The notes under the pieces were generated by a model that had not been told where the DNA came from, searched no databases, and worked only from the letters and a program-made list of their open reading frames with translations. Positions 7,557 through 34,198 of a stretch of DNA of 64,000 bases are shown here, in pieces. The stretch lies in NCBI RefSeq assembly GCF_041886205.1, contig NZ_CP169029.1. One strand, 5' to 3'. Positions within the stretch are counted from its first letter, which is position 1. Every line of letters starts with the position of its first letter. This DNA is from Escherichia coli (GTDB lineage Bacteria; Pseudomonadota; Gammaproteobacteria; Enterobacterales; Enterobacteriaceae). A program made the translations under genes and the position numbers.

Positions 7557-7597
7557 CTAATCCCGGTCACTGAGCCGAGATCTTCTTTGTGTGCCGG

Positions 7598-9415: not shown

Positions 9416-9442
9416 CCCGTCCTGGCGCTTGTACACTGGCAT

Positions 9443-11444: not shown

Positions 11445-11564
11445 GACTTTTTATACCATGGCAAGTGCCATGGCACGCAGTTTTTCGATGTCATTCGTGG
11501 TGTTGAGAGCGGAGATGTCCATACAGGGGAGCATACCACTCCGGATACGGATATTAATTATTTT

Positions 11565-12273: not shown

Positions 12274-12276
12274 TGA

Positions 12277-13413: not shown

Positions 13414-13718
13414 CGTTTGCCTGTCTCCGTTGTTGGAGTGAACATATCAAAAACAGGCAATTACACAATTTTAATTACAGTCTCTTCGGTTATTAACGAA
13501 ACTCAACAATAGCGCCTGGTTGTGAAACCAGTTTAACCATTTGAAGCTTAAACTCATTTGAAAATGATCTGCGGGGTTTTGCAGATAATGTTTTCTGTTC
13601 CATAACAGGTGTCCACTAGTTTTGAAGGTGGGCACCTACGTTACCAATACTGGCTTAATGTGTATTAGCTCAGACCTGATCTGACAGTTACCGGTTATTT
13701 ATACAGGTATCTGTCAGA

Positions 13719-14804: not shown

Positions 14805-14936
14805 AACCGGTAACTCTCAACCTTTCAAGGCTCAGTGTTAGCGCCAATGATATAAGACAGTAATTCACCATTTGAATTGTCCGCTCCACCCAACATGTTG
14901 TTTCCTTGAGGTTCTCACACCAGAAAGGACATCAAC

Positions 14937-16906
<1,970 letters not shown>

Positions 16907-17142
16907 TCAAACAGCGGACATTAAAAATGGCGAAACGGTCATAAATCCTGGCGTTGACATCAGTGTCAGATCAAGTCGCGACTAATACACTTAATGGCTA
17001 CATACGGCGGTCAGTTTACGCTTACGAAAGGACGAACTTTTCTAAGGGCTTTTTTCCTTAAGTGGGGCTTGGATATTCGGAGTGGATTGTATTTAAAACG
17101 AATATCCAAGCAATCAAACTCTAGTCTACAAAACACATAAAT

Positions 17143-17226
17143 TCATGCACGTATCCATCCATGCTGTAGATAATCAGCTGTGATAATAGCAGCCGCTACT
17201 GAAGCAATTGAATGGAAAGCGTCGTC
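17143..17226 (-). pseudogene. Displaced 3' end (last 27 codons + stop) of the PNP-domain gene, separated from the gene body by IS66 element 2
   Basis: Joining minus-strand 19941 to 17226 across the TSD restores an in-frame ending ...STKDDAFHSIASVAAAIITADYLQHGWIRA*. Confidence 0.6.
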
Positions 17227-17287
17227 TTTTGTGCGTAACCGGCTCATTTAAACCGTCTGGTCTGTTTCCTCCGGCTCTACAAAAATA

Positions 17288-17965
17288 ATGTCCATCATTT
17301 TTAATGGACACTATCGTATGAAACACCGGACCTGGATCACTGAAGCTTTACGTCTTCACTTTGAAGAACATTTACCCCGGGTTGTGGCCGGGCGTCGCCT
17401 GGGTGTACCAAAATCAACAGTTTGTAGTATGTTCGTGCGCTTTCGGAGAGCTGGCCTTTCGTGGCCTTTGCCCGCAGGCATGTCGGAGCAGGAACTTGAT
17501 GCCTGCCTTTACGGACAATTTTCCACGGTACCAGTCGTACGTCCTGAAAGCACCGTTATATCCGAAGCCCCCGTGGTAAAAAAACGTCCCCGGCGGCCCA
17601 ACTTCCCTTATGAGTTTAAAATCGCCTTAGTGGAGCAGTCACTGCAGCCCGGAGCCTGTGTGGCGCAGATCGCCCGGGAAAACGGAATCAACGATAACCT
17701 GCTCTTCAACTGGCGCCATCAATACCGGAAAGGTGGCCTGCTGCCTTCCGGAAAAAATATGCCGGCACTGCTTCCCGTGACGTTAACGCCGGAGCCGGAT
17801 AATAAAATCCCGGCCCCCGCACAGGAACCAGAGCAGATAAATACACCGTCCGACAGTCTGTGTTGTGAGCTGGTTCTGCCGGCCGGAACTCTCAGGCTTA
17901 AAGGTAAACTGACGCCGGCGTTATTACAGACACTTATCCGCGAAATAAAAGGGAGCAGCCACTGA
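17288..17965 (+). CDS. tnpA: IS66-family Orf1 (TnpA-like); start uncertain
   Basis: HTH region; first gene after the left inverted repeat. Confidence 0.6.
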   Translation: MSIIFNGHYRMKHRTWITEALRLHFEEHLPRVVAGRRLGVPKSTVCSMFVRFRRAGLSWPLPAGMSEQELDACLYGQFSTVPVVRPESTVISEAPVVKKRPRRPNFPYEFKIALVEQSLQPGACVAQIARENGINDNLLFNWRHQYRKGGLLPSGKNMPALLPVTLTPEPDNKIPAPAQEPEQINTPSDSLCCELVLPAGTLRLKGKLTPALLQTLIREIKGSSH

Positions 17966-18312
17966 TGATATCTCTCCCTGCAGGTTCGCGTATCTGGCTG
18001 GTTGCAGGTATCACCGATATGCGAAATGGCTTTAACGGCCTGGCATCAAAAGTTCAGAACGTCCTGAAGGATGACCCGTTCTCCGGACACCTGTTCATCT
18101 TCCGCGGACGCCGGGGTGACCAGATAAAAGTGTTGTGGGCTGACAGTGACGGACTGTGCCTCTTCACCAAACGCCTGGAGCGGGGCCGCTTCGTCTGGCC
18201 AGTCACCCGTGACGGCAAGGTGCACCTTACTCCGGCTCAGTTATCCATGCTTCTTGAAGGTATCAACTGGAAGCACCCGAAACGAACGGAACGCGCTGGA
18301 ATCCGCATATAA
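17965..18312 (+). CDS. tnpB: IS66-family Orf2 (TnpB)
   Basis: 115 aa, typical TnpB sequence. Confidence 0.85.
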   Translation: MISLPAGSRIWLVAGITDMRNGFNGLASKVQNVLKDDPFSGHLFIFRGRRGDQIKVLWADSDGLCLFTKRLERGRFVWPVTRDGKVHLTPAQLSMLLEGINWKHPKRTERAGIRI

Positions 18313-18331
18313 CCCGTTGTAAAGTGAGGAT

Positions 18332-19903
18332 ATGGACACCTCACTTGCTCATGAGAACGCCCGCCTGCGGGCACTGTTGCAGACGCAACAGGACACCATC
18401 CGCCAGATGGCTGAATACAACCGCCTGCTCTCACAGCGGGTGGCGGCTTATGCTTCCGAAATCAACCGGCTGAAGGCGCTGGTTGCGAAACTGCAACGTA
18501 TGCAGTTCGGTAAAAGCTCAGAAAAACTTCGTGCAAAAACCGAACGGCAGATACAGGAAGCACAGGAGCGAATCAGCGCACTTCAGGAAGAAATGGCGGA
18601 AACGCTGGGTGAGCAATATGACCCGGTACTGCCATCCGCCCTGCGCCAGTCTTCAGCCCGTAAACCGTTACCGGCCTCACTTCCCCGTGAAACCCGGGTT
18701 ATCCGGCCGGAAGAGGAATGCTGTCCTGCCTGTGGTGGTGAACTCAGTTCTCTGGGATGTGATGTGTCAGAGCAACTGGAGCTTATCAGCAGCGCCTTTA
18801 AGGTTATCGAAACACAACGTCCGAAACAGGCCTGTTGCCGGTGCGACCATATCGTGCAGGCACCAGTACCTTCAAAACCCATTGCACGCAGTTATGCCGG
18901 AGCGGGGCTTCTGGCCCATGTTGTCACCGGGAAATATGCAGACCATCTGCCGTTATACCGCCAGTCAGAAATATACCGTCGTCAGGGAGTGGAGCTGAGC
19001 CGTGCCACACTGGGGCGCTGGACAGGTGCTGTTGCTGAACTGCTGGAGCCGCTGTATGACGTCCTGCGCCAGTATGTGCTGATGCCCGGTAAAGTCCATG
19101 CTGATGATATCCCCGTCCCGGTCCAGGAGCCGGGCAGCGGTAAAACCCGGACAGCCCGGCTGTGGGTCTACGTCCGTGATGACCGTAACGCCGGTTCACA
19201 GATGCCCCCGGCGGTCTGGTTCGCGTACAGTCCGGACCGGAAAGGTATCCATCCACAAAATCACCTGGCCGGTTACAGCGGTGTGCTTCAGGCCGATGCT
19301 TACGGTGGTTACCGGGCGTTATACGAATCCGGCAGAATAACGGAAGCCGCGTGTATGGCTCATGCCCGGAGAAAAATCCACGATGTGCATGCAAGAGCGT
19401 CCACCTACATCACCACGGAAGCCCTGCAGCGTATCGGTGAACTGTATGCCATCGAGGCAGAGGTCCGGGGCTGTTCAGCAGAACAGCGTCTGGCGGCAAG
19501 AAAAGCCAGAGCCGCGCCACTGATGCAGTCACTGTATGACTGGATACAGCAACAGATGAAAACACTGTCGCGTCACTCAGATACGGCAAAAGCGTTCGCA
19601 TACCTGCTGAAACAGTGGGATGCACTGAACGTGTACTGCAGTAATGGCTGGGTGGAAATCGACAACAACATCGCAGAGAACGCCTTACGGGGAGTGGCCG
19701 TAGGCCGGAAAAACTGGATGTTCGCGGGTTCCGACAGCGGTGGTGAACATGCGGCGGTGTTGTACTCGCTGATCGGCACATGCCGTCTGAACAATGTGGA
19801 GCCAGAAAAGTGGCTGCGTTACGTCATTGAACATATCCAGGACTGGCCGGCAAACCGGGTACGCGATCTGTTGCCCTGGAAAGTTGATCTGAGCTCTCAG
19901 TAA
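18332..19903 (+). CDS. tnpC: IS66-family transposase TnpC
   Basis: 523 aa; leucine-zipper N-terminus, zinc-finger cysteines, [20 protein letters not shown]. Confidence 0.9.
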
Positions 19904-19906
19904 ATA

Positions 19907-21382
19907 TCAATACGGTTCTGACGAGTCGCTTACTTTTGTGCTGTCGCCAAAATCACTAATCCCTCTCACAATAAGCGCTGGAACTCCCTGCTTTTCGCAG
20001 GCATCAAATACCCCATAGGCTTCCATTTCGGCAACACAGGCTTTGTCATGAAGCGACCTGAAACGTTCTAGTAAAGCAGGATCGCGGATAAGAAGCTCTC
20101 CTGATGCGATAGTGGCTGAAGAAACAATTATCCCAGCAGCTACGTCTCCAGCCTGCGAATTTTCAGGCATTTCGAGTCCTATAGCCTGTGCCCGTTCGCC
20201 AAGACGTGCGGATAGTGACGTTGTTGCAAGGTAAGTATTGAGGTTTTGTTTAGTTGGCATATGGAGACATAATATTTCAGGTCGAGGAGCAAACTTCCCA
20301 CCTTCTAATGCGGCTGCACTTTCATAATAAATGACACGCTCAGAAATAATGACTTCACCTAGCACCATTTTTTCTCTCAACCCCGCCGCAATCCCCATCA
20401 TCAAGACTTTTTGGGGTTTGAATTCCGACAACAACATGGTAGTAATAGCTGAAGCATTCACATTTCCAGCACTAGCGAAAGACGCCACTATGCCAGTTAC
20501 TGGGCCATCTGAGCGTTGTATGGATGTGGACCAGAAATGTATTCCATTTGATGTGAGCCGCGGAGATTCATCATCAGCTATGCCAAATACTTTCTTGGCT
20601 GCAGCAAGTTCAACTGGTAGAGCTGTCAAAATCAACACATTTGGAGTATGCAGCAACTGTTGTGCAGCCCATTCAGCTTTAAGCAATTCAACTGCGATTT
20701 CTGAAAGTCGTTCCAGTCCATAGTAAGGTTCCTGTAACGATAAAGTGTCGAGCTGATTTTTTACGGCTTCACCGGTGCAAGGGAACATAGACAGCGGCTC
20801 TGCATAAAAACGTGCATGTAGGCCTAAAGCACCTTTTCCGTCATCGCAAATTCCCCCAAGCTCCAAGTCAAACGGTAATATGGGGTGGTTGGCTTTACGC
20901 ATTTTACTCGCACGATCGGAAACGCCTTTTCCTCCACCTAATGCAATCATGGCTGTGGCAGCATCAACCTGCTCGCTTCCAATATTTCCTCCAGTAATGA
21001 GATCATCATCTAGATAGCTGACATCAGCAAATCTAGCTGCCTGAAGTTTACGAATAAGCATCCGATTCTCTTCAGACATTTTCTCCCGCATTGCAGAACG
21101 CGACGTGACGATCTTGAGTTGGTGGGCTGGCGTATAATTCTCCATTAAATCTACAGCTTCTTTTACTATCGTCCAGTCGAAGGTCAGGAGATCCCCATTT
21201 TCATTAACAGGTTCTCCTGCCAAATAGACAACTAGTCCCACATTTGCATCAAGGATGCTCTTCGTCAATGCTCGAACGAAACTATGTGCTCGATCAATAT
21301 AAAGTTTTTCTGTATTTTTGGATATACTTCCAGCGATCAGAACATACTCATTATTAGTATTTGTCATCACAATTCTTCCCAA
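19907..21382 (-). CDS. Two-domain protein: N-terminal Rossmann-like domain with GGGKG motif (possible ligand sensor) + C-terminal PNP/MTA-nucleosidase-family domain; 3' end interrupted by IS66 element 2
   Basis: C-terminal half has nucleosidase-like motifs (VAEMEAYGV, RGISDFGD); last 8 codons and stop are IS-encoded (VSDSSEPY*). Confidence 0.6.
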   Translation of the reverse strand: MGRIVMTNTNNEYVLIAGSISKNTEKLYIDRAHSFVRALTKSILDANVGLVVYLAGEPVNENGDLLTFDWTIVKEAVDLMENYTPAHQLKIVTSRSAMREKMSEENRMLIRKLQAARFADVSYLDDDLITGGNIGSEQVDAATAMIALGGGKGVSDRASKMRKANHPILPFDLELGGICDDGKGALGLHARFYAEPLSMFPCTGEAVKNQLDTLSLQEPYYGLERLSEIAVELLKAEWAAQQLLHTPNVLILTALPVELAAAKKVFGIADDESPRLTSNGIHFWSTSIQRSDGPVTGIVASFASAGNVNASAITTMLLSEFKPQKVLMMGIAAGLREKMVLGEVIISERVIYYESAAALEGGKFAPRPEILCLHMPTKQNLNTYLATTSLSARLGERAQAIGLEMPENSQAGDVAAGIIVSSATIASGELLIRDPALLERFRSLHDKACVAEMEAYGVFDACEKQGVPALIVRGISDFGDSTKVSDSSEPY

Positions 21383-21396
21383 AGGAGTATTACTTG

Positions 21397-22296
21397 TTAC
21401 TGTTTAAGTAAGGCATAGATTTCATCCTTGTTTTTTAATGCTAACTGTAATGCTTCCGGCGCCTGATGTGACTGAGTCTCTGTAAGATTTAACTGGAAAA
21501 GAAGGTAGTGCAGCAAAGCTTGTCGGCATTCCAGATGGATTTCTCCGTCGATCATTGCATAATCTCTCTCAATAAGGTTTCGTTGAGCAAGGCATAGTCC
21601 AGGATGCGCTATAAGAATAATTTTGATGAATGTATTCCACGCTAAATCACCATTAGCCCTCTCTTCATCGGGTCCGGCGTTTTGTGCCTGCACTATTCGC
21701 GACAATAAAAAGTCCCTATATTCACCACGTTTATGACACCATGCTCTTGTGTGCCAGCGATAACCATCATGGACTAATGAATGAGGAGTCAAGGTTCGTT
21801 TACTGCCTTGAGGGTCACTCATGGATTGATAAATAACATGAACAGCCTCATTTTCACGTATAGCTCGTAATATTTGACTTACGACATCAGTGTCCAGTCT
21901 ACGTAACAGTCGTGGAACCGCTGCAACGGGTGAGCGCCAGCCCAGAAAGCTTCCAAAATGAATTTCAGGTTGTATTGCCACTCGCAGCAAATCATTCAGA
22001 TAACATTCCAGAGAGCTGGTCATATAAACTGGCTGAAACAATTTCGTTGAACGGTAAACTCGGGAACTCATATCGTACTCAAGATTATCGGGGGCTAACT
22101 TAGTATATTCACTAAGATCCAGCGAAGCTTGAGGTACTGATATGCCGAAAAAATCAGTGAGGCTGCTACGATTGATTTGCCCATCCCATCGAAGTCGATA
22201 ATCAATAAATTCAAGCCGACGCTCTTGGCCCCATCTCGCACCTTGCCGTCCTTTTTGGCTGTCTTGCTTATCCCCTTCTCTAAAGTTATCTGGCAT
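21397..22296 (-). CDS. WYL-domain transcriptional regulator (CapW/BrxR-like)
   Basis: 299 aa; N-terminal wHTH, central WYL-type motif (HDGYRWHTRAWCHKRGEYRDFLLSRI); divergent from the nucleotidyltransferase operon. Confidence 0.65.
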   Translation of the reverse strand: MPDNFREGDKQDSQKGRQGARWGQERRLEFIDYRLRWDGQINRSSLTDFFGISVPQASLDLSEYTKLAPDNLEYDMSSRVYRSTKLFQPVYMTSSLECYLNDLLRVAIQPEIHFGSFLGWRSPVAAVPRLLRRLDTDVVSQILRAIRENEAVHVIYQSMSDPQGSKRTLTPHSLVHDGYRWHTRAWCHKRGEYRDFLLSRIVQAQNAGPDEERANGDLAWNTFIKIILIAHPGLCLAQRNLIERDYAMIDGEIHLECRQALLHYLLFQLNLTETQSHQAPEALQLALKNKDEIYALLKQ

Positions 22297-22394
22297 CTTA
22301 GTTCCCGGTAGCGTATAAAAAATATCTCAATATAAAAAGTAGACGCAGAATAAAAACTGAACGTATAATAATGCTACGCTATAGGGCGGTAAGG

Positions 22395-22434
22395 TGCAAC
22401 CATCACCTCAGTCACTTCTGAGGTGATGGTTGCA
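22395..22434. promoter_or_regulatory. Perfect 17-bp inverted repeat (TGCAACCATCACCTCAG - 6 bp - CTGAGGTGATGGTTGCA) in the divergent intergenic region; candidate operator or 5'-leader hairpin
   Basis: Lies between a -10-like TATAAT (~22363) and the RBS/start at 22466. Confidence 0.5.
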
Positions 22435-22465
22435 GTTTTCATGAATGATCTTCGGAAGGATGTGA

Positions 22466-23410
22466 ATGCCACTCACTAATACTCAGATCCGATACTACGA
22501 CAGCAATGTACTGCGTTTGCCTAAGGATAAGCGTGAAACCTACAATGCCCAAGTAGATCGGCTTATTACAGCGTTACGTAAAAAACTGAAAGATCAGGAT
22601 AAAATAACAATAAAACGTGTCGTTAAAGCTGGTTCGTTTGCTAAACACACTATTCTACGCAAAACCTCAGACAGTCAGGTCGATGTGGATGTTGTGTTTT
22701 ACGTTAGTGGAGAGAAAGTTGCTGAGGAAACCTTCGCAAGCCTGAGCGAAAAAATTTACGAAGCCTTACTTAAAATGTATCCCAACAAAGCTGTAGAAGA
22801 TTTCGAGATTCAACGTAAGGCTGCTACTGTTTCTTTTGTCGGGACTGGATTAGATGTTGATATTGTTCCCGTCATCGAAAATCCGGACAAAGAAGGCTAT
22901 GGATGGCAGTTTGACCGTATCGATGGTTCGAAGACAGAGACTTGTGCTCCTTGCCAGATCAAATTTGTGAAAGATCGCAAAGACCAAGACCCGGACTTTC
23001 GTACTTTAGTACGCTTAGCTAAACGTTGGCGTACCAACATGGAATGCCCACTTAAGTCATTTCATATAGAACTAATCATGGCTCATGTACTAGAAGTCAA
23101 TGGAAAAGATGGTTCGTTGGAGAAGCGATTTCGGGATTTTCTACTGTACATTGCTGAATCAGGATTAAAAGAAGTTATCACCTTCCCTGAAAATAGCACT
23201 ATACCAGCATTTTCCCATCCAGTTGTCATACTGGATCCTGTTTGCGATACGAACAACGTTACCAGCCGTATTACCGAGGATGAGCGAAAAGAGATCGTCC
23301 GGATTGCTGAGGAAAGTTGGGCGACGGCAAATTTTGCGTCGGTAGAAGGAGACTATGATATCTGGAAGGAGCTGTTTGGTCGTTCATTTAAAGTGGAGGA
23401 TACAGCATGA
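22466..23410 (+). CDS. cGAS/DncV-like nucleotidyltransferase (CD-NTase-like)
   Basis: 314 aa; GS-x9-S-x5-DVD nucleotidyltransferase motif, third acidic residue in LDVDIVPV; RBS GGAAGGA upstream. Confidence 0.65.
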   Translation: MPLTNTQIRYYDSNVLRLPKDKRETYNAQVDRLITALRKKLKDQDKITIKRVVKAGSFAKHTILRKTSDSQVDVDVVFYVSGEKVAEETFASLSEKIYEALLKMYPNKAVEDFEIQRKAATVSFVGTGLDVDIVPVIENPDKEGYGWQFDRIDGSKTETCAPCQIKFVKDRKDQDPDFRTLVRLAKRWRTNMECPLKSFHIELIMAHVLEVNGKDGSLEKRFRDFLLYIAESGLKEVITFPENSTIPAFSHPVVILDPVCDTNNVTSRITEDERKEIVRIAEESWATANFASVEGDYDIWKELFGRSFKVEDTA

Positions 23411-23895
23411 GTTACTCCTCAACTGAAACATCGACTTATACCACAACAGACGTTGAAGCAGTCATGCGACGCATCACAGCTGACTTAGTGATGATTGCCG
23501 CCAGTACCGGTGCGATAACTGAATCAAAAGCACGTGAGTATGCTCACGATATAGAACTCTTAGCAAAAAATGGATATCTGGATTACGTCGATGTGACCCT
23601 TATAAGCAATGGCGTTGAACAGAAAGCAACCCGGTTTCATGTGAATGAGTCCGGAGAATTGGCAAATGACAGACCTGGAGACGCTCGTTGGCCGAGAATT
23701 CAGGGGGCTTATCTGCGGATTGTTGTGAACAACCGGAGTACCTACGATCAGGCTGCGAGGCAAAAGCTTTCAGGTAAGATGAAAATATCGTGGTCGCCAT
23801 GTAGTGATGACATCAGTCATTCAGGTTTGACCCAAAGTGGTGGTCGTGAATATTCCAGCAATGGTTATGGTATGCAACGTAAGGATTACAATTAA
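23407..23895 (+). CDS. Small protein (162 aa), possibly HORMA-like (Cap7-type); assignment from position and size only
   Basis: Translationally coupled (ATGA overlap) between the nucleotidyltransferase and the AAA+ ATPase. Confidence 0.35.
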   Translation: MSYSSTETSTYTTTDVEAVMRRITADLVMIAASTGAITESKAREYAHDIELLAKNGYLDYVDVTLISNGVEQKATRFHVNESGELANDRPGDARWPRIQGAYLRIVVNNRSTYDQAARQKLSGKMKISWSPCSDDISHSGLTQSGGREYSSNGYGMQRKDYN

Positions 23896-24791
23896 TGAGC
23901 AAGAGTAGTGTTTTCGACTCAGTGATTGATTTACCGCAGCGCGAACTGACAGAGCGAGAGAACATTTTACTTGGCTTTGAAAGTCGTTATGAGAGTGTCC
24001 ACAACCAACTCAACCTGCTGCTTAACCAAGGGCAACTCCTTGACTGGAGCAAGAAGTACCATAAGAGCGTTTTACCGCTCTGCAAGCTCGTTGCTGAGCA
24101 GTATCCGCTTGTTATTTTTCATGGTGATGTAGGAACAGGTAAAACAGCAACTGCTGAGTGCATCGCGAATCGTCTTGTCCGCGAGTCTCGCACTGAAGAT
24201 TCGGCCCTCTTTAAGCTCAGCAATCGGGTCCGTGGTTCCGGAAAAGTGGGGGAGATGGGGACGCTACTAACTCAGGCATGGGCAGAAGTGTGCGAGGCTG
24301 CGGGTAAAAATCGCAGAGCAATACTGATTATTGATGAAGGGGATTCAATTGCAGCTTCCCGTTCTCAAAACCACAGCCATCATGAAGATAAAGTAGCAGT
24401 AAATACTTTAATTCAAGGAGTGGATGAGCTACGAAAATTTGGCGGCCGGGTTGTGGTAATTTTATGTACTAATAGACTATCCGTCCTTGACCCTGCACTT
24501 CGTAGGCGAGCAGCGATTGTCGAAGAATTTACTCGCCCCGGGCTCACAGAACGAGAATCGCTTTTTCGCATGGATCTTGGAGGGATGGGATTGTCAGATA
24601 GTCAATATCGTCAACTAGCGGTGGCAACTGGTGAGAAAGAAAATCTGCCAGCATGGACATACTCTGATATCCGTACGCGCCTCTATCCCGCAGCAATGTC
24701 AAGAGCGTTTCCTGAACGGGCTTTAAGTTTTAATGATTTGATGGAATTATTGAAAATAATGAGGCCTTCCCCCGTCATGGGAGATATATAA
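23895..24791 (+). CDS. AAA+ ATPase, possibly TRIP13/Pch2-like (Cap6-type)
   Basis: 298 aa; Walker A GDVGTGKTA, Walker B ILIIDEGD; overlapping start with the upstream gene. Confidence 0.5.
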   Translation: MSKSSVFDSVIDLPQRELTERENILLGFESRYESVHNQLNLLLNQGQLLDWSKKYHKSVLPLCKLVAEQYPLVIFHGDVGTGKTATAECIANRLVRESRTEDSALFKLSNRVRGSGKVGEMGTLLTQAWAEVCEAAGKNRRAILIIDEGDSIAASRSQNHSHHEDKVAVNTLIQGVDELRKFGGRVVVILCTNRLSVLDPALRRRAAIVEEFTRPGLTERESLFRMDLGGMGLSDSQYRQLAVATGEKENLPAWTYSDIRTRLYPAAMSRAFPERALSFNDLMELLKIMRPSPVMGDI

Positions 24792-24848
24792 GGCCCCATT
24801 TCTTAATCAACTGATATACTATAAAAATCAACTCCAATTCCGGTACAT

Positions 24849-25451
24849 TTGTTGATTTACGGTGCACTTCTTGCAAGCAGGAACTATATGAGAACTGATA
24901 AAGAAATTTTCGTTTCAGTTGATGTGGAAACATCAGGCCCTATTCCGGGGAAATACAGTATGTTATCGATAGGTGCTTGTGTGGCATTTGAACCATCAAA
25001 GCAATTTTCATGTTACCTTAAACCGATATCTGAAGATTTTATCCCTGCGGCTATGGAAGTGACTGGGTTATCGCTGGAGAAGTTGCACGTCGATGGTTTG
25101 GATCCTGTTGATGCAATGGTTCAATTTAAAGAATGGATTAATTCGGTCGTAAAGGAAGATGAGACTGTAGTTTTTGTTGGTTTCAATGCTTCATTTGACT
25201 GGAGCTTTATTAATTATTATTTCCATGTATATTTAGGTGATAATCCTTTTGGCATCGCAGCACTCGATATAAAATCAATGTATTTTGGCGTTTCTCACGC
25301 CTCATGGAGATTAACACGTTCTAGTGAAATAGCGAAAGTTGTCAAACCTGAGACATATGGTGATCATGATGCATTACATGATGCCCGATATCAGGCTGAA
25401 CTATTCCGGTTGATCGATAAATTGAGCGAGAAGAAAAAATTAGATCGATGA
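24849..25451 (+). CDS. DEDDh-family 3'-5' exonuclease (DnaQ-like fold); likely start at Met 24888
   Basis: Exo [11 protein letters not shown], Exo [11 protein letters not shown], Exo [17 protein letters not shown]. Confidence 0.75.
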
Positions 25452-25538
25452 GTTGCGCAAATAATCATATGGAATTTTCAAAGATTAATTTACTGGAAGT
25501 ACAGTGAATTACCTTATGACAAGAGTTCTGGTGGATAT

Positions 25539-25994
25539 ATGAATGACGAATTTAGCTGTGCAAGTGAGCATATCTGGAAATATTTCGAATTGCATGCACA
25601 ACAAAGAATGACTGTTTTCAATTTTTACATTGCGATAACAGGACTTCTTGCTGCTGGCATTGGGGTTACTCTCCAACAAGGAGGGAAGTATGTATTATTT
25701 ACTTCACTTATGGGGGTGTTTGTAGCATTTATTTCATTTATTTTCTGGAAATTGGATCAGCGAGTGTCGATTTTAATAAAAAATGCTGAAATTGCTCTAC
25801 AAGATCTTGAATGTCAATTTTCCAATGAAAAGCTGAGGATAATCACTAAAGATAATAGCAGTCATTTGCTAAACTTAGGCATTAGTTCTTCTTGGACTTA
25901 TGGAAAATGCTTCCGCATTTCATTTGTTATAGTAGGTCTTACTGGGATATTACTTGCGATTACACCTTTTCTGATGAAAGTCTCGACTTCTTAA
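25539..25994 (+). CDS. Small predicted membrane protein (151 aa), function unknown
   Basis: Two to three hydrophobic helices; last gene before the IS2-like element. Confidence 0.4.
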   Translation: MNDEFSCASEHIWKYFELHAQQRMTVFNFYIAITGLLAAGIGVTLQQGGKYVLFTSLMGVFVAFISFIFWKLDQRVSILIKNAEIALQDLECQFSNEKLRIITKDNSSHLLNLGISSSWTYGKCFRISFVIVGLTGILLAITPFLMKVSTS

Positions 25995-26067
25995 TACATT
26001 TGAGCCGGCCCCTTGAAACGCCAGACAGTGGATGTATCTTAAAATAAGAGATAGGCTTGGATATATG

Positions 26068-26424
26068 TCTAACACTAGTTCTAATTTTGAGATGACAGGA
26101 ACTTTGCTGGGGCAGGGGCTTCGTAAACGTAAAACTCCTCAGGAAAAAATTGACATTATTCAGCAGACAATGGAGCCTGGCATGACGGTGTCCCATGTGG
26201 CGCGTTTGCACAGTATTCAGCCCGGCCTGTTATTTAAGTGGAAAAAACAATATCTGGAAGGAAGTCTCACTGCTGTTGCTGCCGGAGAGGATGTTGTTCC
26301 TGCCTCAGAACTGGCTGCCGCTATAAAACAAATAAAAGAGTTACAGCGCTTTCTGGGTAAAAAACCATGGAAGTTGAGATCCTCAAAGAAGCAGTGGAGT
26401 ATGGTCAGTCGTAAAAATGGATAG
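26068..26424 (+). CDS. IS3-family OrfA (IS2 InsC-like)
   Basis: Motifs [24 protein letters not shown] and [33 protein letters not shown]. Confidence 0.7.
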
Positions 26425-26459
26425 CGCATGCGCCCTTGTTGCCAACGGACAAGGAATAA

Positions 26460-27225
26460 CCATGGTAATCCGTATTCTGGACGTGTCGCGTGCGTAACTG
26501 GCACAACGGATGAAAATATCTGGTAATAAGCCGGATAAACGTCGTCGCAGATGTGATGAGGCTGCGGATGCGGAAGTGTTAGCACGCATCCTTGATATCA
26601 TCAGCGATATGCCGACATATGGCTATCGTCGTGTCCGGGCTATTCTCAGACGGCAGTCTTAACGAAGGACTGCAGTTCGTGAATGCAAATCGCGTTTATC
26701 GAATAATGAGCGAGAATAACCTGTTGTTATTACATGACAAACCTTCACGACCGCAGAGGGAACATAAAGGCCCGAATATCGGTGAAGGAAAGCGACCCGC
26801 GCTGGTGTGCCGATGGCTTTGAGTTCGGTTGTGATGATGACGAAAAACTGCGTGTCACGTTCGCACTGGACTGTTGCGATCTTGAATCCATAGACTGGGC
26901 CGCAAGCACGGGAGGTTATGGCAAAGCAACGGTGCAGGATGTCATGTCAGGAGCGATAGAAAAACGCTTTGGCGATAGACCGGGATGGCCCATCCAGTGG
27001 CTGACCGATAACGGTTCAGCTTATACAACTCATGAAACACGGCAGTTCGCCAGAGAGTTGAATCTGGAGCTCTGCACGACGGCAGTCAGTAGCCCTCAGA
27101 GTAATGGAATGAGAGAACGGTTCGTGAAAACGATGAAGAGCGATTACATCAGTATCATACCTAAACCGGACGTGTTAACGGCAGTAAAAAACCTTGCGGA
27201 GGCGTTCGAACACTATAACGAATAG
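26460..27225 (+). pseudogene. IS3-family OrfB (DDE transposase) with frameshifts and stops
   Basis: Integrase-core homology spread over two or more frames. Confidence 0.7.
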
Positions 27226-27330
27226 CATCCTCATGGTGCCTTGGTTATCTCTCACCGAGGGAATATCAACGTCACTCGGTAACGTTAACTTAAGCTCAAC
27301 GGCTGTCTGGATATAGTGGTTCAAGGGCAC

Positions 27331-27487
27331 CTAAGGGCCTTATTTACGGTGTTTTCGCTGATTGGTTTACGCGGGTCATGTGCTCCCGTAAAGACCAGAC
27401 CATTTTCAACTGCCCATGTCTGAAGTTTTATCAGTATGGCTACAGCCTGTTTGCTGAGTGGCACAAGATGTGGTGTTCGCATCTTAT
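27331..27487 (-). pseudogene. Internal fragment of a P4-type integrase gene
   Basis: ~155 bp at ~93% identity to 43341-43497 within the intact integrase, same orientation. Confidence 0.7.
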
Positions 27488-27692
27488 GGATTCACCATTA
27501 TAGTGACATGTTCAAGATGATGATATATCTTTGAAAAGTGTTCTCTTTGCGAACGGTATAGAATTTCTAGCGTTACTTTTCATAATTACACTTTTTAGGG
27601 TTAGGCAGGCACAATCTATGCGCTGTCTTAGATAACTACATCCATTTTTACTGGACTACCACCAACAAAAATTTAGTGGTGCAGGAGAAAAC

Positions 27693-30600
27693 GTGAAGTA
27701 TCAGATAGTAGGTGGTGCTGGCCTGCACCGCAGCGAAACCAAAACAGTTGATATGATGGTTAAGCAGTTACCAGATAGTTGGTTTGGCTATGCTGGCTTA
27801 GTTGTTACTGATAGCCAAGGGTCGATGGAAATCGATATGCTAATTATTACTGCTGACCGTCTGCTATTAGTCGAGCTTAAAGAGTGGAATGGTAACATCA
27901 CATTTGAAGGGGGGAAGTGGCTGCAAAATGGTAAGTCACGAGGCAAAAGTCCCTATCAGATCAAGCGTGAGCATGCACTGCGACTAAAAGATTTGTTGCA
28001 GGAAGAGTTATCTCGTAAGCTGGGTTACTTTTTGCATGTTGAGGCTCATGTAGTGCTGTGTGGCACAGCTGGTCCTGAAAACTTGCCATTAAGTGAGAGG
28101 CGCTATGTTCATACCCGTGATGAATTCTTGACTATAGGTAACCCAAAAAATTACGAAAAGCTGGTGCAACACACTAACTTTTTTCATCTTTTTGAAGGGG
28201 GAAAGCCTCGACCAAATTCTGATGAGGCATTACCTATAATTAAGTCCTTCTTTGAAGGACCAAAAGTCAGGCCTTTGCCACTAAAAGAAAGCGGTTATCT
28301 TGCGAACGATAAGCCATTCTTTAGTCACCCTCACATGGTCTACAACGAATTCAGGGCTACCCACAAAGACAATAGTCAACACAGAGGTCTGCTACGGCAG
28401 TGGAACTTTGATGCCTTGGGTGTAGCAAACGCAATGCAAACATTGTGGGCTGAGATAGCTCTGCGTGAGACTCGAGTCGGTCGCCTAGTTCGTCATGGCA
28501 GCGCAACTATGCAGGATTATATGTTGCGTGCTGTAAGGGAACTATCCGAGGAGGATATAACTGATGATGCCCGTGAGCTGTATGAGTTACGCCGTAGTTT
28601 TAGCCGATTAGATGAGATTCTAGATAGCGAAGCTGACGGATGGAGTAAATCTGAGCGTATTGATCGCGTTCGTGCATTATTAGCTCCATTCTCGGAATTA
28701 CATAGCTTGGGTATCAGTCATTGTGATATTGACCCGCACAATCTATGGTACGCAGGGGATCAGAAGAGCATTGTCGTTACTGGCTTTGGCGCAGCCTCAC
28801 TGGAGGGACATAATAGCCTAGAGTCATTGCGTCCGATATTGCAAAGTGCTCCATATATTTTGCCCGAAGATGCTTTTGAAGAAGCAGTTGAGCCCTATCG
28901 CCTAGATGTATTCATGTTGGCTGTAATTGCTTATCGTATTTGTTTTGCAGGTGAATCATTACTGACTCCTGGACAGATGCCTGAATGGAGAGCTCCATTA
29001 ACTGATCCTTTTAGCGGTATTCTAAATAGCTGGTTTGAGCAAGCTCTTAACCTTGAGCCAAGTAAACGCTTTCCACGTGCGGACATAATGCTCAATGAGT
29101 TTAATGCAGCTACTAAGGAACATAGCCAAGAATTTGATGAAGCTAACCAGATTTATCAAGAATTAAAGCAAAACAAATTCTTTCGCGAAGGGATGAACAG
29201 CGTTGGTGTGTTAATTGAGTTTCCTCCACTTCCTGAACAGTTGTCTATGGTTTACTCTGCTCTTGCTGCTATTGCTACGACTGGCAGCATCAGTTATCAC
29301 TGTGAACAAGGTGGGAAAGCTCTGCAGGTAAAATTGTGGGATGGTGTTATTTTGACCCCTCAACAACCTGGTGTTAACCGCCGTATCCACGCTTTTAAGC
29401 AACGGATCGATAAGCTTACGCATATAAATCTGCCAACTCCTAAGGTGCAGTCCTATGGACTATTAGGACAAGGCGGCTTGTATGTAGTGAGCGAGTATGT
29501 GGATGGCCTACCGTGGTCACAGTTTATTGCTGAGAACGTGTTAGTACAATCCCAACGTTTTACAATTGCGGAAAAGTTGATCAACACCATTCATGCTTTT
29601 CATGAAAAGCAGTTACCTCATGGAGATCTTTGCCCAGAGAAACTGCTGGTACAAGTCGGGGAGCAGACAGTAATTACTCTGATTGGATTGCTTGAATTCA
29701 GTGATGAATTAACTGCAGATAATCGCTACCAGCCAGAGAATCCCGAAAGTACTGATGCTTTTGGGCGAGATTGCTTTGCAGTATATCGTATGGTGGAGGA
29801 GCTATTTAGTGAAGATATGCCAGTACTGGTGCAGGCTGAGCTAGAACGCGCAAAACAAACCGTTGACGGTATACCTATCGCGCTCGATCCTTTGCTGCAG
29901 TCAATTCGAGCACCGGAACAAGCTGAGATTAATCAAGTTGTGGCGTCTGAGTCACAGGATAAGGTAATTCCTGTTTGCTGGGGCACAGATGATTGGCCGC
30001 AAGAAGTGAAGCTTCTAGAACAAAATGATGGGATCTATTATTTTCAATGTAACTGGTCATCGAACCCACGCTTTGCGCATGAATTGCGTTGTTACATCAC
30101 TGGCCTAGGAGAGCGGCTATTGATAGACTTAGATCCTGATAATCGCACTATTAATAGAATAGTGTATGAAAAAGGATTATCGATCGAAGAAAGTATAAAG
30201 GCTGGTAAATATTCCCAGGCTAAAATTAATACTCAACTTTCATTACAACGTGGCTCACTTAATCAGCGTAATACTTTTATTGAACTACTGTTTAACCTCG
30301 AGCCAGTAATTGATGCCATCATTGAGCGAGCTAATCCTAATCAAGAGATGGATGAAGATGACTTCGATAGTAGTGAGTCAAGCCCAATTGAGTTATGGCA
30401 GGCATTATCTGATACAGAAGTAGACCTACGAGATATAGTCAACATCGACTCTACTGACTTTCAGGAATCACCGAGTGGTTGCTTACTCTACCCATATACT
30501 ACGGAATCCGGTGCTGACCTCAGCTTTGAACTTGATGATAAGATCATTGTTTATATTAAAGATAAGCGTGAATCAGTGCAATTAGGGGAATTGCAGCTAA

Positions 30601-32651
30601 GTGAGACTACGCCGAGTCTATTGGCTATTCGCTTTGATTTTGATGCTGCTCGTAAGCGAATTAGTAGCGGCAGCCAGCTACAATTGGAATCGATCCGTGA
30701 CAAATCATCAAGAGAGTTGCGTCAAAGAGCCCTTCAACGGGTAATTGAAAACAAAGCAGAGATCCAGCATCTGCCACAGTATTTTGATTACCACCAGAAA
30801 CCCTGCATGCAGCAAATGCAACCGCGGCCATCCGCGGAGACATTACGCGCACTTTATGATCAGCCTGGACAACGTTTTAATGAACAGCAGCTAATGGCAT
30901 TTCAACAGTTGGTCGAGTTTGGACCAGTTGGAGTTCTGCAGGGACCACCTGGAACAGGTAAAACAACATTTATTTCAAAATTTATTCACTATCTGTATCA
31001 ACATTGCGGTGTGAATAACATTCTTTTGGTCGGGCAATCCCATGCCTCTGTTGATAATGTAGCCATCAAGGCTCGAGAGCTCTGCCATACGAAAGGAATG
31101 GAACTGGATACAGTACGTATTGGTAATGAACTTATGATTGATGAGGGTATGCTAAGTGTTGCAACTAAAGCTCTTCAGCGACAGATTCAGCATAAATTTC
31201 ACCGTGAATATGATCTGCGAGTTAGCTCCCTAGGAAAGCGCCTAGGGATGGCCCCATTATTAGTCCAACAGTTATGTCAGTTACATCGTACGCTGAATCC
31301 CTTGATGGTGACATATGGCCAATATAGCCGTGAGCTGGATAAAGTAGAACAAATAAAGAGTAGTAGTATTAGTCATCAAGAGCGACTGGCTGAATTATTA
31401 GAACAAAGCAATCAGCTTAAACTGCGAACACAAGAAATTATTAACTCAATATTCGATGACAGCTTGCTGAAAACTCTTGTCTATGATGAAACCTTGATAA
31501 GACAGTTGGCTGAGCAAGTTGCCATACAATACAATTATAACAATCCAGAGAACCTTGAACGTTTTATGCAGCTATTGGAAATGAGCCAAGAGTGGATGGA
31601 TGTATTACGCGGCGGCGAGGCTGGATTTGATCGATTTATGTTCAAAAGTAAGCGATTGGTTTGTGGAACTCTTGTTGGTGTTGGGAATCGTCGACTAGAA
31701 CTAGCTGAGTCCAGCTTTGATTGGGTAATAGTTGATGAGGCTGGCCGAGCACAAGCTGCTGAATTGATGGTAGCGCTGCAATCAGGCAAGCGGGTGCTGT
31801 TGGTAGGGGATCATAAACAATTGCCACCATTCTATCATCAACAGCATCTTAAGTTAGCCTCTAAGAAATTAGAACTCGGGAAAGGGATCTTTTATGAGTC
31901 TGATTTTGAACGTGCTTTTAAAGCAACAGGCGGCGTAACACTCGATACTCAATATCGAATGGTAGAACCAATTGGCGAGTTAGTATCGGAGTGCTTTTAC
32001 GCTCAAGATATCGGTAAACTGCATTCATCGAGGAAAGTCTCGCCAGATTGGTATTCCAAGTTACCAATCCCTTGGAACAAAACTGTTACTTGGATCGATA
32101 GTTCGAGCCCTAATGAAGCAGGTGCAGAAGAACATAAGGGTAATGGTCGTTACTATAATCAACGAGAAGTCCGGCTACTGCTAGAGGCTTTGCAGTCATT
32201 GTCGAGTGATGGCTGCATTGCACAGCTTGAGCAAACTATTACCACAGAACAGCCATATCCTATTGGTATAATCACAATGTATCGTCAGCAAAAAGAGGAA
32301 ATTGACAATGCTATCAGTCGGGCTGAATGGGCTGCATCGTTACGTGGTTTGATCAAGATCGATACCGTTGATTCATATCAGGGCCATGAAAACAAGATAA
32401 TTATCCTCAGTCTGGTTCGCGATAATCCCAACAAACTACAAGGTTTCCTGCGCGACGCGCCGCGAATAAACGTTGCTATTTCGCGAGCTCAAGAAAGGTT
32501 ATTGATTCTGGGAGCAAGGCGTATGTGGTCAAAGACCAATAATGATTCAGCACTTGGAAACGTTCATGAATTTATTAGTAAACAGGTTGCAGTAGATGAA
32601 CCCAACTACCAAATCCTGTGTGGTCAAAGTCTGCTTGGAGATAACAACTAA
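27693..32651 (+). CDS. 1652-aa multidomain protein: N-terminal NERD-like domain, two protein-kinase-like domains, C-terminal SF1 (Upf1/DNA2-like) helicase
   Basis: GTG start with AGGAG RBS; NERD-like EIDMLIITADRLLLVELKEW; kinase-like HCDIDPHN...TGFG...DVFMLAVIAY and HGDLCPEKLLV...DAFGRDCFAVY; helicase Walker [10 protein letters not shown], Walker B VIVDEAG, motifs LVGDHKQLPP, DSYQGHE, VAISRAQERLLILG. Confidence 0.8.
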   Translation: MKYQIVGGAGLHRSETKTVDMMVKQLPDSWFGYAGLVVTDSQGSMEIDMLIITADRLLLVELKEWNGNITFEGGKWLQNGKSRGKSPYQIKREHALRLKDLLQEELSRKLGYFLHVEAHVVLCGTAGPENLPLSERRYVHTRDEFLTIGNPKNYEKLVQHTNFFHLFEGGKPRPNSDEALPIIKSFFEGPKVRPLPLKESGYLANDKPFFSHPHMVYNEFRATHKDNSQHRGLLRQWNFDALGVANAMQTLWAEIALRETRVGRLVRHGSATMQDYMLRAVRELSEEDITDDARELYELRRSFSRLDEILDSEADGWSKSERIDRVRALLAPFSELHSLGISHCDIDPHNLWYAGDQKSIVVTGFGAASLEGHNSLESLRPILQSAPYILPEDAFEEAVEPYRLDVFMLAVIAYRICFAGESLLTPGQMPEWRAPLTDPFSGILNSWFEQALNLEPSKRFPRADIMLNEFNAATKEHSQEFDEANQIYQELKQNKFFREGMNSVGVLIEFPPLPEQLSMVYSALAAIATTGSISYHCEQGGKALQVKLWDGVILTPQQPGVNRRIHAFKQRIDKLTHINLPTPKVQSYGLLGQGGLYVVSEYVDGLPWSQFIAENVLVQSQRFTIAEKLINTIHAFHEKQLPHGDLCPEKLLVQVGEQTVITLIGLLEFSDELTADNRYQPENPESTDAFGRDCFAVYRMVEELFSEDMPVLVQAELERAKQTVDGIPIALDPLLQSIRAPEQAEINQVVASESQDKVIPVCWGTDDWPQEVKLLEQNDGIYYFQCNWSSNPRFAHELRCYITGLGERLLIDLDPDNRTINRIVYEKGLSIEESIKAGKYSQAKINTQLSLQRGSLNQRNTFIELLFNLEPVIDAIIERANPNQEMDEDDFDSSESSPIELWQALSDTEVDLRDIVNIDSTDFQESPSGCLLYPYTTESGADLSFELDDKIIVYIKDKRESVQLGELQLSETTPSLLAIRFDFDAARKRISSGSQLQLESIRDKSSRELRQRALQRVIENKAEIQHLPQYFDYHQKPCMQQMQPRPSAETLRALYDQPGQRFNEQQLMAFQQLVEFGPVGVLQGPPGTGKTTFISKFIHYLYQHCGVNNILLVGQSHASVDNVAIKARELCHTKGMELDTVRIGNELMIDEGMLSVATKALQRQIQHKFHREYDLRVSSLGKRLGMAPLLVQQLCQLHRTLNPLMVTYGQYSRELDKVEQIKSSSISHQERLAELLEQSNQLKLRTQEIINSIFDDSLLKTLVYDETLIRQLAEQVAIQYNYNNPENLERFMQLLEMSQEWMDVLRGGEAGFDRFMFKSKRLVCGTLVGVGNRRLELAESSFDWVIVDEAGRAQAAELMVALQSGKRVLLVGDHKQLPPFYHQQHLKLASKKLELGKGIFYESDFERAFKATGGVTLDTQYRMVEPIGELVSECFYAQDIGKLHSSRKVSPDWYSKLPIPWNKTVTWIDSSSPNEAGAEEHKGNGRYYNQREVRLLLEALQSLSSDGCIAQLEQTITTEQPYPIGIITMYRQQKEEIDNAISRAEWAASLRGLIKIDTVDSYQGHENKIIILSLVRDNPNKLQGFLRDAPRINVAISRAQERLLILGARRMWSKTNNDSALGNVHEFISKQVAVDEPNYQILCGQSLLGDNN

Positions 32652-34198
32652 TGTCAGAACCACGTCTGGGTAATCTGATTACCGTTTTACTACCTGCGCG
32701 TAGTTACAAGATCAACTGCGCTTTGACCACTGAAAAACTGATGCCTGGAATTGAACAGTTTGCATGTCGCTTGCTGCTGATTTTTGATCAACTCTATCCC
32801 AGCGAGTTACAGAATTACTTTGGTCTAACTGATCGTGAGCGAGAGGTATTGCTTGATGGGTTGCTGGCTAACAGACTGATCAACATTAATCCTGATGGGC
32901 ATATTGAGGCTAGCTCATTCCTACGTAAGCATGCAGCTAATAATGGTGGGAAGCCAAGTTTAGTTAAATATCAAGAATGTACGGAGGAAGTTGCATTCGA
33001 TCTACTAACTCTTTCGATATGTAAACCGCAACCAAATCGTCGTTTTACTTCTGGACTGCCAGAGCTATTGCCGCGGCATCAGATCGGGGGAGATGCTGCT
33101 GCGGTAACAGAGGCTTTTAGTTCCCAGTTTAGGCACCATCTTTTGCTCAGCCGCAACAGCGAGTATGAGCGTCAACGGACTAAATTATATAAGATAATGG
33201 GCTGTAGTTCGCATGAGATGGTGCAGCTCCCAATAGAGATAGAGGTTAGCTACGGTGTTTCTGCTGGGAGCATTGAGCCGCAGAAATTTACTCGTTCCTA
33301 TGAATATTTAGGTAACACCCGGCTGCCGCTTTCAAACGAGCTGGAAGCTCATATCGCAGATTTTTTGGGAGAACATAAACTAGATGAATTCGGTATCGAC
33401 TGTGAAGATTTCTGTAAACTAGCAAATGATAAAGTGTTGTTACAATTTGCTAATGGTTATAAGTTCAACTATTCCGGCTGGATAGAGGCTCGTGAACAAC
33501 GTAAAACTGGCTACGGTACTTCATTGACTACCGGCATGTTAGGGGCTGTTTATTTGCCGCACAATTCTAAGCTGTTCATTAGTATGTTGCATAATGCATT
33601 ACGTGATTATATAGGTAAAACAGCTCCAAAAGCGCTGTGGTATAGCAGTAAAGTACCACTGTGGGGAGCTAATGGTAGTCAACTTTCGCGTTTTACTCGC
33701 GCTCTAGGCGATATACTTGGCAATTATGCCGATGATAAGATTGCTCGCATTTCGCTTTTACACTCAAGTGCAGATGAAGGTGAAAAACGTCAAGAGCGTA
33801 AGCGGCACTTAGGTCGTTTTCCTACCGGTATTGGCCTTACTTCAGAGGCTAAATTTGATCGTTTGGAGATCCTCTTAATTCCTGATGTGATTGCTTTGGT
33901 GCAATACCACGGTCAACCTAATTCTGATAGTGCATTAACCCTGCCGATTGGTTATATAACTGTTGAGCCAGAGCGTTTAGAATTACTTAAAAAACTAATG
34001 ATTAAGCGAACTGAAGGGGCTGTTGCAACCATTACTTGGTCTGAATCAAAATTTGAAAATTTAGCTTCGCTATTACCTGTTGAGTTTCTGATTAAACTGA
34101 ATAAGAAAAGCGGTGAAGATGTGGATGCTGCAATAAAAAAAATGCAGATCTATAACCGTGCTGAAACCGCACGGGCAATTTTATCGCTACGCAAGTAG
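32651..34198 (+). CDS. 515-aa protein of unknown function, translationally coupled to the upstream gene
   Basis: Start ATG overlaps the upstream TAA (TAATG); no recognisable motifs. Confidence 0.6.
   Translation: MSEPRLGNLITVLLPARSYKINCALTTEKLMPGIEQFACRLLLIFDQLYPSELQNYFGLTDREREVLLDGLLANRLININPDGHIEASSFLRKHAANNGGKPSLVKYQECTEEVAFDLLTLSICKPQPNRRFTSGLPELLPRHQIGGDAAAVTEAFSSQFRHHLLLSRNSEYERQRTKLYKIMGCSSHEMVQLPIEIEVSYGVSAGSIEPQKFTRSYEYLGNTRLPLSNELEAHIADFLGEHKLDEFGIDCEDFCKLANDKVLLQFANGYKFNYSGWIEAREQRKTGYGTSLTTGMLGAVYLPHNSKLFISMLHNALRDYIGKTAPKALWYSSKVPLWGANGSQLSRFTRALGDILGNYADDKIARISLLHSSADEGEKRQERKRHLGRFPTGIGLTSEAKFDRLEILLIPDVIALVQYHGQPNSDSALTLPIGYITVEPERLELLKKLMIKRTEGAVATITWSESKFENLASLLPVEFLIKLNKKSGEDVDAAIKKMQIYNRAETARAILSLRK

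Follow-up and report, generated by a model that had tools for sequence, protein, structure and literature searches.

A type III CBASS locus of Escherichia coli matching that of upec-117, with its cap17 effector gene split by an IS66-family element

Introduction

In the type III cyclic oligonucleotide-based antiphage signalling system (CBASS) of Escherichia coli MS115-1, the HORMA protein activates the nucleotidyltransferase CdnC, and the TRIP13 protein disassembles the complex of the two. Another type III CBASS, that of upec-117, was described by Blankenchip et al. (2022; PMC9122588), who named its products Cap17, CapW, CdnC, Cap7 (HORMA), Cap6 (TRIP13), Cap18 (a 3'-5' exonuclease) and Cap19 (a protein with three transmembrane helices). 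The upec-117 clone protects against phage lambda cI-, and this protection needs CdnC D73/D75, Cap17 D472 and Cap19, while Cap18 D165 is dispensable (PMC9122588). Here we report on a CBASS locus in a 64,000-nucleotide stretch of E. coli DNA (assembly GCF_041886205.1, contig NZ_CP169029.1), referred to below as the window, in which five genes at 22466-25994 had been flagged from the letters alone as a CBASS-like operon with an atypical gene set (the original prediction).

Two further proteins of the upec-117 type have been studied closely. E. coli CapW binds a 21-bp imperfect palindrome that overlaps the -10 site and represses the divergent promoter (PMC9122588), and it senses and is released by single-stranded DNA (PMC11662680). 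Cap17, carried by about 10% of type III CBASS, was studied as the 505-residue protein of E. coli KTE188, which is an ATP nucleosidase with a PNP domain bounded by residues 239-505 and a catalytic D472 (bioRxiv 10.1101/2023.01.24.525353). The same preprint, by Rousset et al., describes Detocs, a system made up of the kinase DtcA, DtcB, and DtcC, a response regulator fused to a PNP domain.

Results

The locus matches the upec-117 system

All five flagged open reading frames (ORFs) are present on the plus strand. We find it very probable that they are the cdnC-cap7-cap6-cap18-cap19 operon of a Cap17-type type III CBASS, the same system as in upec-117, and that the effector of this copy has probably been disabled by an element of the IS66 family of insertion sequences (IS). 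A megablast search of the locus against 5,426 complete E. coli genomes returned it in only five records, one of which is CP054230.1 (strain EcPF14). Over window positions 19933-26300 the DNA is 99.3% identical to CP054230.1 and, by BLAST, 100.0% identical to strain ZYB39, from which one CdnC residue differs. The WP_ proteins of the reference locus that we used for comparison are also those of the published clone (CP054230.1:69873-76528).

The flagged interval covers only part of the system, as capW and cap17 sit upstream of it on the minus strand. This system had been described and studied by experiment before, and apart from the insertion it is ordinary. The original prediction was right about the composition of the gene set, but the set is that of the published Cap17/Cap18/Cap19 subtype and so is not an unknown one. 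It had noted no recognisable NucC-type or phospholipase effector after the ATPase gene; the effector is not missing but is encoded by cap17, which lies upstream in divergent orientation, outside the flagged interval.

Family assignment of the operon genes

The first gene, cdnC (22466-23410, plus strand), encodes a cGAS/DncV-like nucleotidyltransferase (CD-NTase) of 314 residues, an assignment on which PADLOC, NCBIfam and PDB searches agree. It matched the PADLOC CBASS cyclase model at 6.9e-124, one of 31 PADLOC cyclase models matched, and scored 344.8 bits against the NCBIfam equivalog CBASS_cyclase_a, for which the cut-off is 200. Its closest solved relative is the CdnC of E. coli MS115-1 (PDB 6P80, 1.5e-37). 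The GS...DxD...D signature from which a CD-NTase had been predicted was located at G56-S57, D73-x-D75 and a DVD around 129-131. The prediction had named two outcomes that would overturn it, namely a first gene that is a minimal nucleotidyltransferase (MNT) toxin or an antibiotic nucleotidyltransferase, and an ATPase that is an unrelated AAA+ protein rather than TRIP13. We regard such a locus outside CBASS as refuted, with practically no likelihood left to it: CBASS_cyclase_a was matched above its cut-off, together with the many PADLOC cyclase models, the best PDB relatives of the two proteins are a CBASS CdnC and a CBASS Trip13, and matches of CdnC to NCBIfam models from outside CBASS fell far under their cut-offs (e.g., 35.5 bits for the archaeal CCA-adding enzyme against a cut-off of 281).

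The next two genes encode the regulatory pair. The 162-residue product of cap7 (23407-23895, plus strand) had been called a HORMA protein from its position only. It matched the PADLOC HORMA model at 7.5e-81 over its full length and Pfam bacHORMA_1 at 7.5e-55 over residues 1-162, so that the call of a bacterial HORMA-domain regulator now stands on these profiles and gene position is no longer needed for it; a single-sequence PDB search with the Cap7 protein gave no match. The product of cap6 (23895-24791, plus strand; 298 residues), predicted to be a TRIP13 ATPase with Walker A and B motifs, proved to be a TRIP13/Pch2-like AAA+ ATPase by its match to PADLOC TRIP13 (5.7e-125) and by its best solved relatives, the CBASS Trip13 of E. 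coli MS115-1 (6P8V, 5e-54) and a Rhizobiales Pch2 (6PB3, 1.8e-48). Its Walker A motif (GTGKT) is at residue 80 and its Walker B motif (IIDE) at residue 145. The predicted coupling of the first three genes is borne out by their junctions: cdnC and cap7 overlap by 4 nt (ATGA) and cap7 and cap6 by 1 nt (TAATG), the pattern expected for translational coupling.

The fourth gene appears in the window as a TTG-initiated ORF at 24849-25451; the ATG annotated in identical RefSeq loci corresponds to 24888, which gives a cap18 of 24888-25451 (plus strand) encoding 187 residues. The prediction of a DEDDh exonuclease followed by a small membrane protein holds for both genes. Cap18 matched the PADLOC CBASS exonuclease model at 2.4e-90 and PDB 7T2S, the crystallised upec-117 protein, across 187/187 residues (5.2e-126), and it is 100% identical to WP_001258365.1, with zero differences. 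The DEDDh residues of this 3'-5' exonuclease were found at D12/E14, the D104 region, H160 and D165. The protein encoded here (WP_001258365) hydrolyses 2'-5'-linked pApG and pGpA in vitro, and the authors of that work suggest that exonucleases of this kind break down cyclase intermediates and thereby set a threshold (bioRxiv 10.1101/2025.03.04.641389). Judged by their profile scores, the family assignments of these four genes are far beyond chance.

CapW and Cap17 form the upstream arm

On the minus strand, capW (21397-22296) encodes a transcriptional repressor with wHTH, WYL and WCX domains. It matched the PADLOC WYL model at 1.7e-19, and its solved relatives are CapW (7TB5, 5.7e-130; 7TB6, 3.2e-68; 9C5G) and BrxR (7T8K, 4.5e-42). 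The features by which CapW/BrxR proteins are recognised were all found: full-length similarity to solved CapW, a divergent position and a palindrome over the -10. The protein differs by one substitution, Q105R, from WP_001534693.1, the upec-117 CapW used in PMC9122588.

Beyond capW lies cap17, the gene of the signal-activated effector, which an IS66 element has split after codon 478. The larger part (19907-21367, minus strand) is an ORF for a 486-residue product that consists of codons 1-478 of the 505-residue TPALS-PNP ATP nucleosidase, followed by eight IS-encoded codons (VSDSSEPY) and a stop. It matched 'PN-superfamily', a CBASS effector model of PADLOC, over profile positions 1-478 of 506 (2.7e-245), and Pfam Cap17-like_N (3.8e-65, the TPALS domain) and PNP_UDP_1 (4e-19). 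The catalytic D472 is kept. The last 27 codons and the native stop are orphaned on the far side of the element (17143-17234, minus strand), in a piece that takes in the left-hand copy (17227-17234) of the target-site duplication (TSD).

A simple IS66 insertion removes the end of the PNP domain

The inserted block (17235-19933, 2,699 bp) is a complete IS66-family element on the plus strand with intact tnpA (17288-17965), tnpB (17965-18312) and tnpC (18332-19903); NCBIfam matches include IS66 TnpA at 1.1e-88 and transpos_IS66 at 1.8e-143. Its ends are imperfect terminal inverted repeats, GTAACCGGCTC.../GTAAGCGACTC..., that begin with GTAA, and an 8-bp direct duplication, TTTTGTGC, borders it on both sides (17227-17234 and 19934-19941). 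The element is missing at this site in related genomes, and similarity to the reference loci ends at window 19933. In strain ZYB39, locus positions 1-6009 equal window 11226-17234 at 100% identity and 6001-18368 equal window 19933-32300 at 99.99%, so that the two sequences are collinear on either side of the 2,699-bp block, and cap17 is annotated at ZYB39 locus 5918-7435. A 103-nt query from the cap17 tail matched window 17125-17227 at 100%. The block is a simple and presumably recent insertion of an IS66-family element into cap17, one that the original prediction did not include.

We compared the window Cap17 residue by residue with the intact 505-residue protein and modelled the intact PNP domain with AlphaFold2 (AF2) from an 18-sequence alignment, with a predicted local distance difference test score (pLDDT) of 90.6. 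In the model the last beta-strand ends at D472, and residues 481-501 form a 21-residue terminal helix (pLDDT 92-97). The PNP domain encoded in the window is incomplete, as residues 479-505, this helix included, are replaced by eight unrelated residues. The lost segment is conserved in all 18 PNP domains compared, from Cap17 and from the DtcC of Detocs, and aligns with the C-terminal part of solved methylthioadenosine/S-adenosylhomocysteine nucleosidases. Because the insertion deletes this conserved helix at the C-terminal end of the PNP fold, Cap17 is probably inactive in this genome and this copy of the CBASS probably disabled. The strain would then most likely carry a sensor arm without a working effector.

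It is unlikely, though conceivable, that the 478 native residues with their eight-residue IS tail fold and still cleave ATP, leaving the system fully functional. In its favour, D472 and every upstream catalytic element are retained, the reading frame runs on to a stop that lies 26 nt inside the IS, and the capW-cap17 promoter is untouched. The 27 deleted residues speak against it, being conserved throughout the comparison and forming the helix that is predicted to close the PNP fold, as does the PADLOC profile match of Cap17, which stops exactly at the IS junction.

The divergent promoter region

The 169 bp between capW and cdnC (22297-22465) form a divergent promoter region that differs from the upec-117 reference by four substitutions in 181 aligned nt. 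A promoter scan found a promoter-like site with a -10 of TATAAT at 22364-22369. A 21-bp imperfect palindrome, AACGTATAATAATGCTACGCT, at 22360-22380 overlaps this TATAAT and recurs in conserved form at the Hafnia and Budvicia loci; it agrees with the published CapW site (PMC9122588), and we take it as the candidate CapW operator, the exact coordinates being our own reading of the sequence.

In the leader of cdnC, between the -10 and the ribosome-binding site, a perfect inverted repeat of 17 bp (22395-22434) encloses a 6-nt loop and is followed by GTTTTCAT. The 95-nt leader has a fold energy of -41.4 kcal/mol (z = -5.0 against shuffles). In E. coli, Hafnia and Budvicia the left arm of the hairpin is invariant but the right arm is not. 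This hairpin could be an attenuator or a protein-binding site, and we found no mention of it in the literature on this system. We considered the 17-bp palindrome as the primary CapW operator and rejected it, since the published site is a 21-bp imperfect palindrome over the -10 and the right arm is not conserved in Hafnia and Budvicia.

Cap19 is a probable member of the 8xMP family

The last gene of the operon, cap19 (25539-25994, plus strand), encodes a three-helix membrane protein of 151 residues. Cap19 itself matched the Pfam 8xMP family (PF24838) weakly, at 5.2e-4, and 29 of 32 diverse relatives matched it at E<=1e-3 (best 1.5e-10). There was no match to NCBIfam, even at E<=10, nor to PADLOC 2.0, which contains no Cap19 model. 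NCBI names some of the relatives 'RipA family octameric membrane protein'; a literature search for the basis of the '8xMP' or 'RipA octamer' name returned nothing relevant. Some UniRef relatives are named SLATT (SMODS and SLOG-associating 2TM effector), and we rejected this name because Pfam-A searches with Cap19 and the 32 relatives gave 8xMP only.

The AF2 monomer (pLDDT 77) has long helices at residues 3-46 and 49-91 and a C-terminal helix at 121-150. Conserved motifs lie before the first hydrophobic stretch (EHxWxYFELHxQQR), after the second (KLDxR) and before the third (WxYGxCFR). A profile of the 32 relatives found no solved relative, and neither did a Foldseek search of the PDB with the AF2 monomer at E<=0.001, a search that is uninformative here because a three-helix monomer is too simple.

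Cap19 adjoins PNP effectors in CBASS and in Detocs

We surveyed the neighbourhoods of 18 Cap19 homologues with at least 45% identity, that of the window included, and all 18 adjoin a Cap17-clade PNP effector. Six are in Cap17-type type III CBASS loci (the window, Hafnia, Budvicia, P. mandelii, Pectobacterium and P. syringae). The other 12 are in Detocs operons, which encode a Y4jQ-type kinase, a receiver protein and a receiver-PNP protein (P. aeruginosa, Mixta, P. wadenswilerensis, Superficieibacter, Pseudomonas K2I15, Citrobacter, Cronobacter, Erwinia, Pantoea, P. kribbensis, one metagenome contig and one IMG/VR contig). At several Detocs loci the Cap19 gene abuts or overlaps dtcC, or lies directly 5' of dtcA.

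The association also appeared in the reverse direction. Starting from Cap17 in a plasmid collection, we found that all four independently recovered Cap17-type CBASS loci carry a Cap19 homologue; on an Acinetobacter wuhouensis plasmid its gene stands beside cap17 in divergent orientation rather than after cap18. A reverse search in viral contigs gave no viral relative with the Cap17 alignment, and the PNP alignment was too divergent to derive patterns from; a Cap19 scan of the viral contigs found one locus. In neighbour-joining trees, which are rough and have no support values, the Cap19 proteins of CBASS and Detocs interleave, following host taxonomy, whereas the PNP domains split by system. 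For three distant Cap19-like genes (43-44% identity), the available DNA shows neither a PNP nor a cyclase nor a Detocs gene, although one of these loci runs off its contig. We therefore limit the association to relatives of at least 45% identity.

Because Cap19 co-occurs with these enzymes in both CBASS and Detocs (18/18 and 4/4), it appears to partner the ATP nucleosidase rather than CBASS signalling. From these gene neighbourhoods we judge the chances to be even that Cap19 serves Cap17-clade ATP-nucleosidase (PNP) effectors as a dedicated partner in the membrane, irrespective of the sensor, and is not a CBASS-specific accessory. One speculation is that Cap19, assembled as an octamer, is a co-effector that converts ATP cleavage or one of its products into membrane failure or permeabilisation, or into premature lysis; another is that the PNP enzyme depends on Cap19 for its action in vivo, e.g., as a scaffold. 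The association may be new: the Detocs preprint (bioRxiv 10.1101/2023.01.24.525353) mentions no Cap19-like gene, and none of the literature searched links Cap19 or 8xMP to Detocs. It leaves the classification of the locus unchanged.

Membrane effectors are common in CBASS. One might accordingly take Cap19, Cap18 or both as the effectors and the operon at 22466-25994 as self-sufficient without Cap17, a reading to which we give very little credence. The PADLOC exonuclease model does carry the label 'Effector', and Cap19 is a membrane protein required for protection (PMC9122588). Against this, D472N or D472A in Cap17 alone abolishes protection and catalytic-dead Cap18 has no effect (PMC9122588, bioRxiv 10.1101/2023.01.24.525353); Cap18 degrades linear 2'-5' intermediates and is therefore a negative regulator; and no nucleotide-sensing domain is recognisable in Cap19, which is found with Detocs as well, a system that works by phosphotransfer rather than nucleotides.

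Three of the loci with Cap19-like genes had further features. In Cronobacter sakazakii (locus positions 8001-13010), the cassette of Cap19 homologue, DtcA, DtcB and DtcC lies in a lambdoid prophage, with replication gene P on one side and the rusA/Q region on the other; defence genes carried by prophages typically occupy such a 'moron' position. In Pseudomonas wadenswilerensis, a second protein of 664 residues with an N-terminal Cap17-clade PNP domain (hmmsearch 4.5e-82) is encoded at locus positions 10681-12675 (minus strand), convergent to the Cap19 homologue that follows the Detocs genes, so that two PNP effectors flank one Cap19 gene. In Gemmobacter tilapiae (locus positions 9866-15620), a distant Cap19-like gene (43%) is followed by PADLOC matches to TGT (3.9e-74) and QueC (1.2e-15), genes that accompany type IV CBASS or 7-deazaguanine systems as accessories; that stretch showed neither a cyclase nor a PNP gene.

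Genomic surroundings

The CBASS is one member of a three-system defence island. A type I Mokosh lies directly downstream (27693-34198, plus strand), with an MkoA of 1652 residues (PADLOC PDLC03921, E = 0, full length) and an MkoB of 515 residues (1.1e-61), and the type II Mokosh gene MkoC, of 1171 residues (PADLOC PDLC03924, E = 0, full length), is at 39097-42612 (minus strand). A tRNA-Phe gene (44524-44599) adjoins a 441-residue ORF, both within 43064-44599 on the minus strand, and these are probably the integration site and the integrase of the island. A stretch of this ORF (43343-43498) is 91% identical to an integrase fragment at 27321-27482, and such an internal remnant suggests that two islands are stacked at one site. 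The DNA on either side of the CBASS is shared with ZYB39: to the left (11226-17234) it holds IS66, IS256, IS481 and IS21 copies, and to the right (26032-27482) a frameshifted IS2-like element (26032-27225) and the integrase fragment.

Discussion

We propose the following scheme for the system. CapW would hold the palindrome over the -10 of the divergent promoter and repress both arms until single-stranded DNA or DNA damage frees it, steps that have been shown for the upec-117 protein (PMC9122588, PMC11662680). The window has conserved both the capW gene and the candidate operator. After infection Cap7 would activate CdnC, while Cap6 would take the complex apart and so keep the system off; we infer these two roles by analogy with MS115-1. 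CdnC would make a cyclic oligonucleotide, and Cap18 would hydrolyse 2'-5'-linked linear intermediates, thereby setting the activation threshold. The signal would bind the TPALS domain of Cap17, the ATP nucleosidase effector, a step shown for the E. coli KTE188 protein of 505 residues, which has the same domain boundary and D472 (bioRxiv 10.1101/2023.01.24.525353). Protection in the upec-117 assay needs Cap19 (PMC9122588), which by our survey travels with the PNP effector. In this genome, loss of the terminal PNP helix to the IS66 element after codon 478 would leave the sensor arm without a working effector.

Several points weigh against parts of this account. The HORMA and TRIP13 roles are taken from the homologous MS115-1 system, whose CdnC matches at an E-value of 1.5e-37, and a nucleotide product of the CdnC encoded here was not found in the literature on the system. 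The biochemical data on Cap18 are from a preprint that used heterologous cyclases (bioRxiv 10.1101/2025.03.04.641389), and in the lambda assay a catalytic-dead Cap18 gave no phenotype (PMC9122588). Finally, truncated Cap17 keeps its TPALS domain as well as D472, so that it may have residual activity.

Silencing of an effector by an IS is a common fate for costly abortive-infection systems. For annotation, it means that a prediction of phage resistance from gene content would wrongly count a working CBASS in this strain. Cap19 is the sole component of the system without a mechanism, yet it is required for protection, and the finding that it strictly accompanies ATP-nucleosidase effectors under two signalling architectures that are unrelated offers a testable way into its function. 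The survey points, too, to a fourth gene at many Detocs loci that has gone unrecognised.

The closest known system is the upec-117 type III CBASS (Blankenchip et al. 2022, PMC9122588), which has the same seven genes, Cap17-CapW-CdnC-Cap7-Cap6-Cap18-Cap19, in the same order and orientation, with 99.3% DNA identity over the shared 6.4 kb. Cap18 is identical in the two, and CapW (Q105R) and Cap7 (I14T) have one substitution each. CdnC (E170D, K283E and A313T), Cap6 (I94L, L243V and H250N) and Cap19 (R7C, N109H and F134L) have three each, and Cap17 has five within residues 1-478. The difference that matters is that cap17 of the window is cut after codon 478 by the 2,699-bp IS66-family element with its 8-bp TSD.

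The type III CBASS found in E. coli MS115-1 (CdnC-HORMA-Trip13-NucC; 6P80, 6P8V) shares the sensor logic of a clade-C CD-NTase with one HORMA protein and Trip13. Its effector is the endonuclease NucC, whereas here it is the ATP nucleosidase Cap17; the window system has the extra genes capW, cap18 and cap19, and its HORMA protein is too diverged for a single-sequence PDB match. Detocs (Rousset et al., bioRxiv 10.1101/2023.01.24.525353) has in common with the window system the effector chemistry of a Cap17-clade PNP ATP nucleosidase and, as found in this analysis, a Cap19/8xMP homologue at many of its loci. It differs in signalling by His-Asp phosphotransfer, not by a cyclic oligonucleotide, and has no CD-NTase, HORMA, TRIP13 or exonuclease.

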